This document shows, one piece after another, positions 14,004 to 23,201 of a stretch of DNA of 64,000 nucleotides. How positions within the stretch are numbered: the first letter of the stretch is position 1; each line of letters opens with the position of its first letter. The DNA comes from Rhodanobacteraceae bacterium (GTDB lineage: Bacteria; Acidobacteriota; Terriglobia; Terriglobales; Acidobacteriaceae): contig JANXWZ010000196.1 in assembly GCA_025350865.1 (NCBI GenBank), positions 5,895 to 69,894 of the forward strand, written 5' to 3'. The position numbers and the translations under genes were made by a program. The notes under the pieces are model-generated. The model ran no database searches and was not told where the DNA came from. It saw only the letters and a program-made list of their open reading frames with translations.

Positions 14004-14067
14004 ACCAAATCCAATCAATAAGCGAAGTCGAAGTGAAAAGCGCGATACGCTTTTGACGCTCTGGCTC

Positions 14068-14250
14068 TCATGCTGCACCCTCCGCAGAGCCTGCTCCCAC
14101 ATTTCTTGCGCGATTCAGAAGAACATCTTCCATACACTTTTGAGCCTTGCGCCTGGCTGGCGTCAATGCTTTCGTGTCCATGCTCATCGTTGTCGGGATG
14201 CTGGCGTGGCGCATCAATTCCTGCACCGGATCGTCTGCCGCCTGAGGTGG
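14068..14250 (-). pseudogene. C-terminal remnant of a tyrosine recombinase/integrase
   Basis: Manual translation QAADDPVQELMRHASIPTTMSMDTKALTPARRKAQ matches the box II pattern VQELLRHA-x3-TT-x2-Y, with the catalytic Tyr replaced by Asp. It lies next to the tRNA 3' end and is not in the ORF track. Confidence 0.75.
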
Positions 14251-14334
14251 GGAATTTAGGTTTTAAGGGAGTGACCAGCGAAATTCGCGTACGGCGCAGG
14301 CAGGCTCAAGCAGAATGGTGCGATGAGGTTATAA

Positions 14335-15636
14335 ATGCTGACTTCTGAACGCAAGAAGAAACTGATGGCAATTGTTCGCGTCTCGAGTGGCAACTTTCTC
14401 GAGATGTACGACTTCATGGTTTTTGGATATTACTCGGTTGCGATCGGGAAGGCATTTTTCCCGAACGGTGATCCGTTCGTATCTCTGATGTTTTCGCTGA
14501 TGACCTTTGGCGCAGGGTTCCTGATGCGACCCTTTGGCGCGATCGTGCTGGGTGCCTATACGGACCGCCATGGACGCCGCGCGGGGTTGCTACTTTCGCT
14601 GGGCCTGATGTCTATAGGGATTCTTTCCATTGCCTGCGTGCCGAGCTACAGGACGATTGGCGTAGCGGCACCCCTGCTGGTGCTGGCCGGACGTCTGTTG
14701 CAGGGCTTCTCAGCCGGGATGGAGCTTGGTGGAGTCTCCGTATACCTCTCGGAGATCGCGACCAAGGGCCACAAGGGCTTCTTCGTGAGTTGGCAATCTG
14801 CCAGCCAGCAGGTTGCCGTCATGTTCGCGGCACTGGTTGGGATGTTGCTGAGTGCCCAGCTGTCGCCGACCGCGATGGCGTCGTGGGGCTGGAGAGTTCC
14901 GTTATGGATTGGCTGCTTGATTGTGCCCCTGTTGTTTCTGCTGAGGGGATCTCTTGAGGAAACCGATGAGTTTGTGGCGCGCAAGCAGACACTGACTACG
15001 GGGCAAATTCTGCGTGTCCTGGCTGGTAATGCCAAACTCGTTGGTATTGGCACCATGCTGTTGACGATGACGACGGTGTCTTTTTACATGATCACTGCCT
15101 ACACTCCGACCTTTGGTAGCAGCGTGCTTCATTTATCCAGTAAAGACAGTTTTATCGTGACCTTTTGTGTGGGAGCGTCGAATCTGTTCTGGCTTCCTAT
15201 CATGGGTAGCCTCTCTGACAGAATCGGGCGATTCCCTTTACTGATTGGATGTACCGTGGTGATGATGCTAACCGCATATCCAGCTATGTTCTGGCTTGTT
15301 GCGGGACCTACTTCCGGGAAGCTGCTTGCTGTGGAGTTGTGGCTCTCGTTCCTCTATGCCAGTTATAACGGCGCGCTCATTGTCTTTATGACTGAATTCA
15401 TTCCGCTGGAGGTTCGAACTGTCGGGTTCTCATTGGCCTATAGTTTGGCGACTGCAATCTTTGGCGGATTCACACCGGCGATCAGTACGTACTTGATTCA
15501 CTGGAGCGGGAATCGCGCCATTCCGGGGTTGTGGCTGACGTTCTCAGCTGCAGTTGGACTGAGCGCGGCTCTGATTGCCCGCGGGCAGAAGAGCCTGGGT
15601 AATCAATTTATTGAAGTATCGACCGTTGGAGCATGA
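14335..15636 (+). CDS. MFS tricarboxylate/H+ symporter (CitA/TcuC-like, MHS family)
   Basis: SGNFLEMYDF, GFLMRPFGAIVLGAYTDRHGRRAG, GRLLQGFSAGMELGGVSVYLSEIA; about 12 TM helices. Confidence 0.88.
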   Translation: MLTSERKKKLMAIVRVSSGNFLEMYDFMVFGYYSVAIGKAFFPNGDPFVSLMFSLMTFGAGFLMRPFGAIVLGAYTDRHGRRAGLLLSLGLMSIGILSIACVPSYRTIGVAAPLLVLAGRLLQGFSAGMELGGVSVYLSEIATKGHKGFFVSWQSASQQVAVMFAALVGMLLSAQLSPTAMASWGWRVPLWIGCLIVPLLFLLRGSLEETDEFVARKQTLTTGQILRVLAGNAKLVGIGTMLLTMTTVSFYMITAYTPTFGSSVLHLSSKDSFIVTFCVGASNLFWLPIMGSLSDRIGRFPLLIGCTVVMMLTAYPAMFWLVAGPTSGKLLAVELWLSFLYASYNGALIVFMTEFIPLEVRTVGFSLAYSLATAIFGGFTPAISTYLIHWSGNRAIPGLWLTFSAAVGLSAALIARGQKSLGNQFIEVSTVGA

Positions 15637-15642
15637 GGCGAA

Positions 15643-20934: not shown

Positions 20935-20936
20935 CG

Positions 20937-21443
20937 ATGGCCATCGAAATCCTGCCCGCTCAAAAAGCCAAGAGAAAAATTATCCGCGCAGGACTCATCG
21001 GTGGCCTGGCGGGTGGAGTCACAATCTGGATCTATGAAGCGCTTGTGTGGGTGGGAGCGCAACACCTGATGCCACTGTCAGGGATTCCGCCGAATGCGAC
21101 GGGGCTGGTTTTTGGAAAGCACTTTCAGCAAGCAATCGGAGTGTGGGCGTATGCGCTTGGAACGTCCATCCATTTCGGCTTTGCAGTCGTATGGGGTGTT
21201 CTGTTTGCGATGATGTGGCCGATGGCTCGTCGCCGCGGGTATGAAGCTACATTCGTCGCCATTCCTTTCGCCGCGGTCGCTTGGGTGGCCATGCATGTCG
21301 CAATCTCCATTGCAACGACCGACCACCCGAACTACACAGATCCCGTCGTGATCATCGGAGGAGTGATGTCTCACATCTTCTTCACTGTTCCGATGGCGTT
21401 GGTGGTGAAGCGGCTTACGGGAGAAGCGGCCAATCAAGGCTAG
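20937..21443 (+). CDS. Uncharacterised four-TM membrane protein
   Basis: Four hydrophobic helices with three intramembrane His (SIHF, AMHV, MSHI). Tightly packed in the operon. Confidence 0.7.
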   Translation: MAIEILPAQKAKRKIIRAGLIGGLAGGVTIWIYEALVWVGAQHLMPLSGIPPNATGLVFGKHFQQAIGVWAYALGTSIHFGFAVVWGVLFAMMWPMARRRGYEATFVAIPFAAVAWVAMHVAISIATTDHPNYTDPVVIIGGVMSHIFFTVPMALVVKRLTGEAANQG

Positions 21444-21470
21444 TGACACACGGTTTACTTGGAGGGAAGA

Positions 21471-23183
21471 ATGATGCTTCGGTCAGGTAGGTGGAACGTG
21501 ATCGCAACGGCGGTGGCGCTGGGCGCGGTGCTGCTATCCAACGGCGTAACGAATGCGCAGAACGCTTCGCCGATCGCTGCGCTGGGTGTCGTCGAACCGG
21601 TGATTGGGTGCGAAAAGCTGCTGGAGGCGGACATCAGCGATATCGTCGGCGCGAAGACGCACATCACTTCAGCCGAGTTGGTCCCGCAGGGAGCACCCGC
21701 CCCGTATTGCCGCGTTACCGGGTACGTCGAGCCCAGTGTGAAGTTTGAGGTGCGGCTGCCGCTGACCACGTGGACGCAGCGTTTTGTACAAACGGGTTGC
21801 GGGGGGCTCTGCGGCAACCTCAACATTCGCTTAAGCAATGACGACGGGTGCTACCCCGCGCAACACGGAGAACTCGCCCTCGTCTCCACTGACATGGGCC
21901 ACAGTGGCGGCGGCATGGATGGGGTGTTCGGAGAGAAGGACTATCAACTCCGCATCGACTTCGCCTATCGCGGAGTGCATGTCACCACGCTCGCAGCGAA
22001 GGCCCTGATCGCGAAGTTCTATGGACAGTCCCCCAGGTTCTCCTATTTTTCGGGCTGCTCCGATGGCGGACGCGAGGCGCTGATGGAGGCTGAGCGCTAT
22101 CCGCAGGATTTCAACGGCATTGCCGCAGGCGCACCCGCGATGAACTTCACCACCCAGAACAGCTTCTACCATGGCTGGAACGCGATGAAGAATACAGGTG
22201 CGGATGGGAAGCCGATTCTGACCGCTGATAAGCTGCCCATCTTGCACCAGGCGATCCTGCAGGCCTGCGATGCGGCCGACGGGTTGAAGGACGCCCTGAT
22301 CAGCGATCCCTTCTCCTGCCACCCCGATCCGTCGGTCGTTGAATGCAAAGCTGGCGCGAACGATGACAGGTGCCTGAGTCACGCCCAAGTCGAAACCGCG
22401 CGGGAGATTTATCGAGGTGCCCATGATGCCAAGGGGAACAAGTTTGTTCTGAGCGGTCCAATGCCTGGATCCGAACTGGCCTGGGCAGGCGTCTATGTGC
22501 CACCAGCAGGGAGCGATCGCATCATGAGCGCGGGGATTGCAACCGGGACATTGAAGAATCTCGTCTATGAGAAGAATCCACCGTCGAGCTATACGCTGAA
22601 CGACTTCGAATTCACACCTGCATCGTTCGCTGCAACGACCAAACTGCATGCGCTCTACGATGCGACCGATCCGGATCTAACTCCATTTTCACAGGTCGGC
22701 GGGAAGCTGATTCTGTGGCACGGTCTGGCCGACCCGCATATCTCGCCGCTCAATACCGTTGCTTACTACGAAGCGATGAACAAGGTAATGGGAGAGAAGG
22801 CGGTCAAGCAGTTCGCGCGAGTCTACCTGTTTCCGGGTGGGTACCACTGCGGCGGCGGCGAGGGCCCCTTCAGCTTCGATCTGATGACTGCTTTGATGGC
22901 CTGGGTAGAAAAAGGGACAGCGCCTTCTGCCCTCATCGCCTCCCATCAGGGGCCAAACTCCGGGCCGACCCCCGACCGAACGCGTCCTGTCTACCCCTAT
23001 CCGTTCCAGACAAAGTACAACGGAACCGGGAGTATCGATGACGCAAAGAACTTCAGCATCGGCCCGCCAACGCCGGTGCCGTCGTCACAACTCACATGGC
23101 TCGGCTCGGGCTTCTTTGCTGCTCATTTCGAGCTTTGGTGCCAAGGGCACGGAGCCACAATGACCTGCGACTCGAAGCAATAG
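21471..23183 (+). CDS. Tannase/feruloyl esterase family hydrolase, exported
   Basis: Signal peptide, GCGGLCG, STDMGH, GCSDGGREAL (Ser), HGLADP (Asp), GGYHC (His). Confidence 0.92.
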   Translation: MMLRSGRWNVIATAVALGAVLLSNGVTNAQNASPIAALGVVEPVIGCEKLLEADISDIVGAKTHITSAELVPQGAPAPYCRVTGYVEPSVKFEVRLPLTTWTQRFVQTGCGGLCGNLNIRLSNDDGCYPAQHGELALVSTDMGHSGGGMDGVFGEKDYQLRIDFAYRGVHVTTLAAKALIAKFYGQSPRFSYFSGCSDGGREALMEAERYPQDFNGIAAGAPAMNFTTQNSFYHGWNAMKNTGADGKPILTADKLPILHQAILQACDAADGLKDALISDPFSCHPDPSVVECKAGANDDRCLSHAQVETAREIYRGAHDAKGNKFVLSGPMPGSELAWAGVYVPPAGSDRIMSAGIATGTLKNLVYEKNPPSSYTLNDFEFTPASFAATTKLHALYDATDPDLTPFSQVGGKLILWHGLADPHISPLNTVAYYEAMNKVMGEKAVKQFARVYLFPGGYHCGGGEGPFSFDLMTALMAWVEKGTAPSALIASHQGPNSGPTPDRTRPVYPYPFQTKYNGTGSIDDAKNFSIGPPTPVPSSQLTWLGSGFFAAHFELWCQGHGATMTCDSKQ

Positions 23184-23201
23184 CTGGCTTATGACGCAAG
23201 A

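Follow-up and report, generated by a model that had tools for sequence, protein, structure and literature searches.

A predicted galloyl-ester operon with a His-to-Tyr clade of type I extradiol dioxygenase beside tRNA-Ala(GGC) in an acidobacterial genome

We analyzed a 64-kb stretch of DNA (the window, in whose coordinates all positions are given) from an uncultured genome that recurs in rock and sediment metagenomes. It carries nine co-directional genes on the + strand, which lie 3' of tRNA-Ala(GGC), end at 23183 and are separated by spacers of -25 to +69 bp; the gene calls for this cluster are identical on public contigs. The cluster is probably a mosaic with one main function, the use of galloyl esters (hydrolysable tannins), in which an operon typical of the phylum is joined to a 2.5-kb remnant of an element. 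A first-pass annotation had presented the whole locus as an island. However, the point of interest is most likely the dioxygenase and not the island: the gallate dioxygenase GalA appears to be replaced, non-orthologously, by a clade of vicinal oxygen chelate (VOC) enzymes with tyrosine at position 202 (Tyr202), which is widespread in Acidobacteriota. The transporter, binding protein, regulator, exported tannase, dioxygenase and lower pathway that the annotation had listed on one strand after the tRNA are all present. The genes from the regulator to the tannase are as follows.

16566-17318, + strand: TetR-family regulator (TetR_N and TetR_C_30 domains), first gene of the conserved core module.
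17387-18460, + strand: GalD/LigU, 4-oxalomesaconate tautomerase of the PrpF family (NF033377, 511.7 bits against 440; LigU, PDB 6p3j, 389 bits).
18530-19264, + strand: GalB-type 4-oxalomesaconate/4-carboxy-2-hydroxymuconate hydratase with the PIG-L fold (GalB of Pseudomonas putida, PDB 5cgz, 303 bits, residues 9-243 of 244).
19261-19965, + strand: GalC/LigK, aldolase of CHA (4-carboxy-4-hydroxy-2-oxoadipate)/oxaloacetate decarboxylase, RraA-like (NF006731, 359 bits against 179).
19978-20934, + strand: type I (VOC) extradiol dioxygenase with two domains, Tyr202 clade (Glyoxalase Pfam domains; TIGR03211, 331.3 against 320.2).
20937-21443, + strand: four-transmembrane protein of 168 aa, co-inherited with the dioxygenase and the esterase.
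21474-23183, + strand: serine hydrolase of the tannase/feruloyl-esterase/MHETase family (PF07519, 429.4 bits against a gathering threshold of 29.8).

The lower pathway is the firmest part of the assignment. GalB, GalD and GalC are clear orthologues of the solved GalB, LigU and CHA aldolase, from which their activities are predicted. GalC/LigK additionally matched TIGR02798 (335 against 304.5) and the HMG/CHA aldolase of P. putida (PDB 3noj, 275 bits). As all three orthologues are present, the predicted route from oxalomesaconate to pyruvate and oxaloacetate is complete. Neither LigC, the 4-carboxy-2-hydroxymuconate semialdehyde dehydrogenase, nor LigI, the 2-pyrone-4,6-dicarboxylate lactonase, was found in the 64-kb window. 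According to known gal/lig pathway chemistry, gallate is the only substrate described that yields oxalomesaconate in one dioxygenase step. Therefore, with LigC and LigI missing from the window, gallate would be the sole known substrate that feeds the three enzymes directly.

The dioxygenase retains most of the catalytic residues of a type I extradiol enzyme. Its metal ligands H157, H219 and E270 are kept and align to H155, H217 and E268 of AphC; H251 and Y260, the equivalents of His249 and Tyr258, are kept as well. Tyr202 (codon 20581-20583) aligns without gaps to His199 of XylE, to His200 of AphC and homoprotocatechuate 2,3-dioxygenase, and to the equivalent residue of LapB. In AphC, His200 is the proposed proton donor to the iron-bound alkylperoxo intermediate (PMC9062432). 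The predicted structure (pTM 0.82) gave template-modelling scores of 0.76-0.83 to AphC/3lm4, LapB, XylE and homoprotocatechuate dioxygenase, with 0.81-0.83 for AphC/3lm4 and XylE specifically. GalA and DesB, like the protocatechuate 4,5-dioxygenases, are members of the LigB superfamily (PMC4250580, PMC3962378, PMC8431788). By its sequence, the dioxygenase is not a LigB-type enzyme such as GalA or DesB, and its family differs from that of every described gallate dioxygenase that we located. No LigB-type dioxygenase was found in the cluster or in a neighbor census of the related loci (loci and contigs compared with the window carry L numbers below).

The substitution defines a clade. Tyr202 was found in all 58 metagenome homologues with at least 57% identity that covered the position, whereas all 22 homologues at 41-44% had His; among database proteins with at least 55% identity, 162 of 164 had Tyr. 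In a maximum-likelihood tree, the Tyr sequences (31 rows) were monophyletic through one change (support 92/85), and a core acidobacterial clade within the Tyr group was supported at 100/99. Thr207, Gln297 and His308 are invariant in the clade and occupy three of the six positions that form the hydrophobic 4-alkyl pocket of AphC. Such a polar pocket would fit a ring carboxylate, as in protocatechuate or gallate (4-carboxycatechol). Homologues are numerous, since 7,725 of 8,000 scored candidates matched at E<=1e-20 (best identity 91%), and the best of those with organism names come from Acidobacteriota (Terriglobales, Acidiferrales and Solibacter). Clade members are annotated in their sources as "catechol 2,3-dioxygenase". 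The nearest solved relative is PDB 9wgj (354 bits, 50% identity). It carries Tyr where AphC has His200 and falls within the Tyr group, on a branch that is sister to the acidobacterial core clade and not part of it. The fold library that we used (a PDB copy to 8 April 2026) does not contain 9wgj. We also observed that 9wgj is labelled "catechol 1,2-dioxygenase" while its sequence is that of a VOC-fold extradiol-type enzyme, so that the label may be wrong or the activity unusual. Literature searches on 9wgj, on a VOC-type gallate dioxygenase and on acidobacterial operons for tannase and gallate returned nothing relevant; subscription journals lay outside these searches, and an earlier description is possible.

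Gene context ties the clade to the oxalomesaconate pathway. About 26 contigs carry a dioxygenase at least 70% identical to that of the window, and in nearly all of those with flanks it adjoins a gene for GalB, GalC or GalD, for a LigI-like lactonase or for a tannase. The recurrent order is TetR-GalD-(LigI-like lactonase)-GalB-GalC-dioxygenase-(MFS)-(four-transmembrane protein)-tannase, where MFS is a major facilitator superfamily transporter; it is seen in L087, L093, L094/95, L100, L101, L103, L104 and L106-L109, with proteins 71-93% identical. The flanks of the module are unrelated between contigs and include rpoD, two-component systems and SpoIIE phosphatases. The LigI-like lactonase of the sister operons scored 111 bits against LigI (4d8l). 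In other members of the clade (L089/90, L096, L110 and L125-L149), the dioxygenase adjoins a LigJ-type oxalomesaconate hydratase (2gwg, 519 bits), and these contexts also hold a second amidohydrolase, an HpcH-type aldolase and an NMT1-like binding protein. The presence of two non-homologous hydratases for one intermediate beside one dioxygenase clade is strong guilt-by-association, indicating that the product of the clade would enter the oxalomesaconate pathway. In at least 12 distinct contexts, the dioxygenase gene is followed, immediately or nearly so, by a gene of the tannase family.

Two variants of this neighborhood were recorded in addition. In L087 (11085-11963), L088 (1342-2220) and L089 (14774-15682), the genes for the Tyr-clade dioxygenase and the tannase have a creatininase/MftE-family gene between them or nearby. 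In a Tyr202 subclade at 60-66% identity (L118-L146, e.g., L122 5917-6822 and L128 423-1853), the neighbors include an NAD-binding DUF1932 protein (nine loci) and a 476-aa MFS protein (12 loci). The pathway of this subclade may include a dehydrogenase step and so start from another substrate.

The esterase has the features of an exported member of its family. The CS-D-HC motif is intact (C200-S201, D425 and H463-C464, numbered from an alternative TTG start at 21459), and in the alignment with MHETase, the segments GCSDGG, GLAD and YHCGGG coincide with its catalytic triad (Ser, Asp, His) and the flanking Cys pair. A signal-peptide-like N-terminus of the basic-hydrophobic-AxA type is found on the esterase and on every homologue; therefore, export is predicted to be a conserved trait. 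The best solved matches were MHETase (193 bits) and fungal feruloyl esterases (FaeB, 181 bits). Between the dioxygenase and the esterase, the four-transmembrane protein is 70-74% identical over its full length (72-78% over the aligned part) to homologues in L094 (12198-12737), L100 (4399-4950), L101 (1919-2470) and L103 (4628-5173), with 107 invariant columns and the motifs WIYEALVWVG, RRRGYE, DHPNY and GGVMSHIFF. It had no Pfam or PDB match, and its AlphaFold model (pLDDT 53) was too poor for a fold search.

Orthologues of the TetR regulator, 64-77% identical, head the module in L087, L093, L094, L096, L106 and L109. Two sites were recognized in the spacer that follows the regulator gene.

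17320-17325, + strand: promoter-like TTGACA between TetR and GalD, common to three of six aligned loci.
17341-17358, + strand: near-palindrome TTATAC-N6-GTGTAA in the TetR-GalD spacer, from the six-locus alignment.

TTATAC and GTA are the sole invariant blocks in the otherwise diverged TetR-GalD spacers of the six loci. It is plausible that TTGACA and the near-palindrome form a promoter with an overlapping TetR operator.

We propose the following course of events. The Sec-exported, tannase-family serine esterase would free gallate from galloyl esters or depsides. Gallate would then enter the cell, in this genome perhaps through the TcuC-like MFS transporter encoded upstream of the regulator. 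Judging from its gene context, the Fe(II)-dependent VOC-fold dioxygenase of the Tyr202 clade would open gallate directly to 4-oxalomesaconate, and the GalD tautomerase, GalB hydratase and GalC aldolase would carry this product to pyruvate and oxaloacetate. The TetR protein may repress the GalD-to-tannase operon at the conserved near-palindrome overlapping the promoter. As for origin, the TetR-to-tannase operon would have been placed between tRNA-Ala and the trehalose genes, where the nearest relatives differ, and the first 2.5 kb would be the remnant of a tRNA-integrated element. The earlier proposal that the cluster takes tannin or galloyl esters to central metabolism is upheld by the orthology of the lower pathway and by the conserved adjacency of esterase and dioxygenase; it is weakened at the upper steps, where the dioxygenase is a VOC enzyme with Tyr and the substrate of the esterase is unreadable from sequence.

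Several points weigh against the use of galloyl esters. The operon was not found in RNA-seq runs. The TcuC-like MFS family is annotated for tricarboxylates and not for aromatic acids. The galloyl specificity of the esterase is deduced from gene context, and the protein is about equidistant from MHETase and the feruloyl esterases. Many sister operons hold the LigI-like lactonase, which would also suit 3-O-methylgallate or a product whose cyclisation gives 2-pyrone-4,6-dicarboxylate. The dioxygenase passes TIGR03211, the equivalog model for catechol 2,3-dioxygenase (331 against 320), and the loss of the His proposed to protonate the alkylperoxo intermediate could mean a wholly different chemistry.

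Some of these points would also suit the same architecture with another substrate, namely esters of protocatechuate or 3-O-methylgallate, chlorogenate-type esters or lichen depsides, with the Tyr202 dioxygenase cleaving the product and the missing steps encoded elsewhere. PF07519 includes feruloyl, chlorogenate and MHET hydrolases, the lactonase of the sister operons would be in keeping with 3-O-methylgallate or 2-pyrone-4,6-dicarboxylate, the protein that adjoins the 60-66% subclade is a possible dehydrogenase, and the relatives are often lichen-derived according to database records. However, the window contains neither dehydrogenase nor lactonase and yet holds the tautomerase, hydratase and aldolase in a tight operon. 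No dehydrogenase occurs in the neighborhoods with at least 70% identity either, and gallate alone is established to feed the three enzymes directly, as in the P. putida gal cluster and with DesB of SYK-6. We therefore consider another substrate unlikely and favor galloyl esters as the substrate of the operon.

The surroundings of the operon were then compared between genomes. Its two boundaries and the features of the first 2.5 kb are as follows.

13928-14003, + strand: tRNA-Ala(GGC), called by ARAGORN; left boundary.
14071-14262, - strand: 64-codon frame, putative integrase remnant, with the box-II-like motif QELMRHASIPTTM and no Tyr at the nucleophile position.
14335-15636, + strand: TcuC-like MFS transporter, metabolite:H+ symporter family (Sugar_tr/MFS_1; NF011656, 663 bits against a cutoff of 445).
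15643-16590, + strand: orphan periplasmic binding protein, SBP_bac_11, remotely ModA-like (Pfam 119 bits, domain at residues 31-251; signal peptide).
16486-16515, + strand: candidate decayed attR, in which the 3' end of tRNA-Ala recurs as a degenerate direct repeat (23 of 30 positions identical, the first 12 exact).
23202-24944, - strand: TreZ, malto-oligosyltrehalose trehalohydrolase; right flank and first gene of a conserved trehalose block.

The left flank is a pair of genes for an extracytoplasmic function (ECF) sigma factor and its anti-sigma factor, and the right flank is TreZ-TreY-TreS(Mak). The C-terminus of the anti-sigma factor (zf-HC2, 12309-12983), whose gene adjoins that of the ECF sigma factor, shows a weak resemblance to TonB_C (E=0.02). 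TreZ is at most 73% identical to its counterparts in Granulicella-like and other Acidobacteriaceae genomes, which bears out the first-pass description of the host as a probable acidobacterium. The tannase gene and treZ are convergent, with stop codons 18 bp apart (23184-23201); such a spacer leaves no room for a terminator and fits a recent junction.

Relatives differ on both sides of the cluster. The left block asmA-lepB-rnc-TPR-anti-sigma-sigma-tRNA-Ala is conserved, and in L180, L181 and L183 the orthologue of the ECF sigma gene likewise has tRNA-Ala upstream. In L183, whose left-flank gene is 77% identical, the tRNA-Ala is followed by unrelated genes and the cluster is absent; in this tRNA-side comparison, relatives with sequence past the tRNA reached about 92% at most. 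On the right, neither the cluster nor tRNA-Ala nor genes of the left flank lay within 10 kb of TreZ in any of 80 Acidobacteriaceae TreZ loci, and the closest TreZ relatives in a large protein collection, L097 (82%) and L099 (77%), have other genes after treZ. The dioxygenase is 85-91% identical to its nearest homologues, and the flanking core genes are similarly close to theirs (TreZ 82%, TPR protein 92%). These comparisons indicate that the TetR-to-tannase operon is typical of Acidobacteriota and, as judged from the loci seen, occupies different genomic sites in different lineages. Its placement between tRNA-Ala and the trehalose genes appears to be lineage-specific and would have arisen either through rearrangement or through transfer from another acidobacterium. 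We considered and rejected a single donor from elsewhere than the phylum, as all close homologues with an organism name are acidobacterial.

The left flank and the cluster are joined across about 22 nt of the tRNA that are common to many community members, and this join was examined in the metagenomes. Owing to this shared sequence, public assemblies break at the tRNA. In public de Bruijn assemblies of four runs, breaks were found at 13953-13976 and 15087-15111; depth at the tRNA spikes to 200-500x, and the loose ends run into sequence of other organisms. Strain variation was rejected as the cause of the breaks at the tRNA and at 15087-15111, since depth is equal on both sides and the loose ends point to shared k-mers. 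In three independent metagenomes, the depth of the cluster was 38.7, 19-21 and 13-14, compared with 38, 22 and 11.6 for the flank, which supports the join. No contig joining the flanks without the cluster was found in these three metagenomes. Separately, runs X1 and X4 gave identical numbers and look like one data set deposited twice.

Composition sets one gene apart. The first-pass annotation had seen the first genes as more AT-rich, and the MFS gene does have the lowest GC content of the 40 genes in the window (0.541 compared with 0.595 overall). The cluster as a whole differs slightly from the rest of the window in mean GC (0.580 vs 0.602, p=0.03) and in GC at third codon positions (GC3; 0.669 vs 0.715, p=0.01), whereas codon-usage distance does not (0.149 vs 0.155, p=0.95) and its tetranucleotide distance ranks 10th of 56 windows. 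As neither codon usage nor tetranucleotides are outlying, the composition of the cluster is not unlike that of its host, and the MFS gene alone stands out.

The first 2.5 kb, consisting of the integrase-like remnant, the MFS gene and the binding-protein gene, looks like a decayed tRNA-integrated element. The MFS protein scored only 44 bits with the aromatic acid/H+ symporter model, and it has no orthologue in the related module loci, where the sole match was 28% identical (L114). The binding protein, about 23 bits from ModA in the PDB, was not found in these loci either; the tRNA-like repeat lies within the coding sequence for its non-conserved C-terminal tail of about 60 aa. It is unusual to find a binding protein and an MFS transporter as a pair. 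The two genes are translationally coupled with a 6-bp gap, the binding protein has no ABC partner, and the pair was found in this genome only among all loci seen. DNA similarity to the related modules begins at 16601, right at the junction marked by the repeat at 16486-16515. This repeat has a score of 16, the joint-best + strand match in 64 kb (tied with 998-1041), and one in 300 shuffles of the 9-kb region reached it. It carries weight mainly because its position coincides with the predicted junction, and its score alone is suggestive only. The window contains two further real matches of equal or near-equal score, and the empirical chance level of the repeat taken alone is perhaps 0.1-0.3, which counts against the element. 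So does the putative status of the integrase remnant. The translation of 14071-14262 holds DPVQELMRHASIPTTMSMDT, which resembles box II of tyrosine recombinases, but the frame gave no Pfam match at E<=1, no PHROGs match at E<=10, no BLAST match in plasmid records and chance-level matches only in phage records. Its alignment to a real integrase fragment from L091 was no better than those of 10% of shuffles (p ~0.1). No intact integrase gene was found in the stretch.

Alternatively, the whole of 14004-23190 could be one island, acquired laterally as a unit and integrated at tRNA-Ala(GGC) by a now-decayed integrase. The stretch starts at the 3' end of a tRNA with an integrase-like remnant, it is missing from both flanks in every relative examined, its GC and GC3 are slightly low, and related modules lie near tRNA-Ser with integrase fragments (L091) or an IS110 transposase (L095). 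However, the TreZ end has no tRNA repeat: neither an exact copy of the tRNA 3' end nor one with up to three mismatches was found in the window or near the TreZ end (~23.2 kb), and the sole candidate repeat closes the 2.5-kb unit. In no other locus seen does the core module come with these MFS and binding-protein genes, neither codon usage nor tetranucleotide signature is outlying in the window, the closest homologues are all acidobacterial with identities like those of the flanking core genes, no island-free variant occurs in the three metagenomes, and the integrase remnant has no statistical support. A single island is thus distinctly unlikely. What survives of the lateral acquisition proposed at first is the absence of the cluster from both flanks in relatives and the island-like first 2.5 kb; the core is widespread in the phylum (71-93%), its composition and depth are ordinary, and the TreZ end has no repeat. 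We therefore retain the mosaic of a phylum-typical operon and an element remnant.

The loci with mobile elements were also recorded in their own right. In L091 (947-1433 and 1820-12890), which belongs to another acidobacterial lineage, a dioxygenase-tannase pair lies about 9 kb from tRNA-Ser(CGA) and Phage_integrase fragments (also L091/92); the interval contains another VOC gene, genes for a GntR regulator and a carboxylesterase, and a fragment of a tannase gene. In L095, an IS110 transposase gene (14228-14962) follows the module.

It is highly improbable that the dioxygenase is an ordinary catechol 2,3-dioxygenase that stands beside the gal genes without a functional link: TIGR03211 is passed just over its cutoff and the source annotations agree, but the adjacency to oxalomesaconate genes is conserved across many contexts with two non-homologous hydratase types, genes for processing 2-hydroxymuconic semialdehyde are lacking, and the enzyme has a polar pocket and Tyr in place of the catalytic His.

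In soil and peat, tannins and other polyphenols are believed to hold back decomposition, and Acidobacteriota are among the most abundant soil bacteria. Metagenomics has marked the phylum as rich in genes for polyphenol transformation, but to our knowledge concrete acidobacterial polyphenol pathways are scarce. The GH3 and GH127 genes and two esterase genes noted elsewhere in the window were found; the accompanying remark that the phylum is better known for polysaccharide use is dated, as Acidobacteriota have already been reported to be rich in polyphenol-metabolism genes (PMC11153144). We see an even chance that the Tyr202 clade is an unrecognized type I class of gallate (or closely related hydroxybenzoate) dioxygenase, which arose through a single His-to-Tyr change and, with exported tannase-family esterases, forms a common aerobic route of tannin mineralization in soil Acidobacteriota. 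If Tyr202 enzymes cleave gallate, they would represent a third, non-homologous solution to gallate ring opening; thousands of database entries named "catechol 2,3-dioxygenase" would have to be renamed, and a Tyr202 dioxygenase gene beside a PF07519 esterase gene would be a simple metagenome marker for tannin mineralization. With Tyr occurring naturally in place of His200, the clade also lends itself to testing the acid-base step of the extradiol mechanism.

Finally, we compared the cluster with known systems. The dioxygenase shares the two-domain VOC fold, the 2-His-1-carboxylate triad and the His249/Tyr258 equivalents with AphC (3lm4/7q2a), XylE (1mpy), LapB and homoprotocatechuate 2,3-dioxygenase; it differs from them in Tyr for His200, in its Thr/Gln/His pocket and in a gene context for oxalomesaconate instead of semialdehyde. 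The esterase has the full-length domain, the CS-D-HC motif and the secretion signal of the PF07519 tannase/feruloyl esterase/MHETase family, whereas its best solved matches (193/181 bits) are far under the 429-bit family score. The tannase and gallate decarboxylase system of Lactiplantibacillus plantarum likewise places an esterase, a transporter and gallate-converting enzymes under one regulatory scheme. However, it decarboxylates gallate and goes no further than pyrogallol, and its tannase is of another family; here, the ring would be opened and fully catabolized.

Sphingobium sp. SYK-6 uses the same intermediates as those predicted here; its LigU has an orthologue in the window (389 bits), and sister acidobacterial clusters hold LigJ-type (519 bits) and LigI-like enzymes beside the dioxygenase clade. 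In contrast, its DesB and LigAB are type II enzymes of the LigB superfamily (PMC4250580, PMC3962378), and the window has a GalB-type hydratase in place of LigJ and lacks LigI and LigC. The gal cluster of P. putida KT2440 is similar in its GalB, GalC and GalD/LigU-type orthologues and in the route from gallate through oxalomesaconate and CHA to pyruvate and oxaloacetate. However, its LigB-type GalA is matched here by the VOC-fold (type I) Tyr202 enzyme, and its LysR-type regulator GalR by a TetR protein. The cluster contains no gene for an OprD-type porin (GalP), and its MFS family differs from that of GalT. Here, unlike in P. putida, an exported tannase-family esterase and a four-transmembrane protein are encoded inside the operon.

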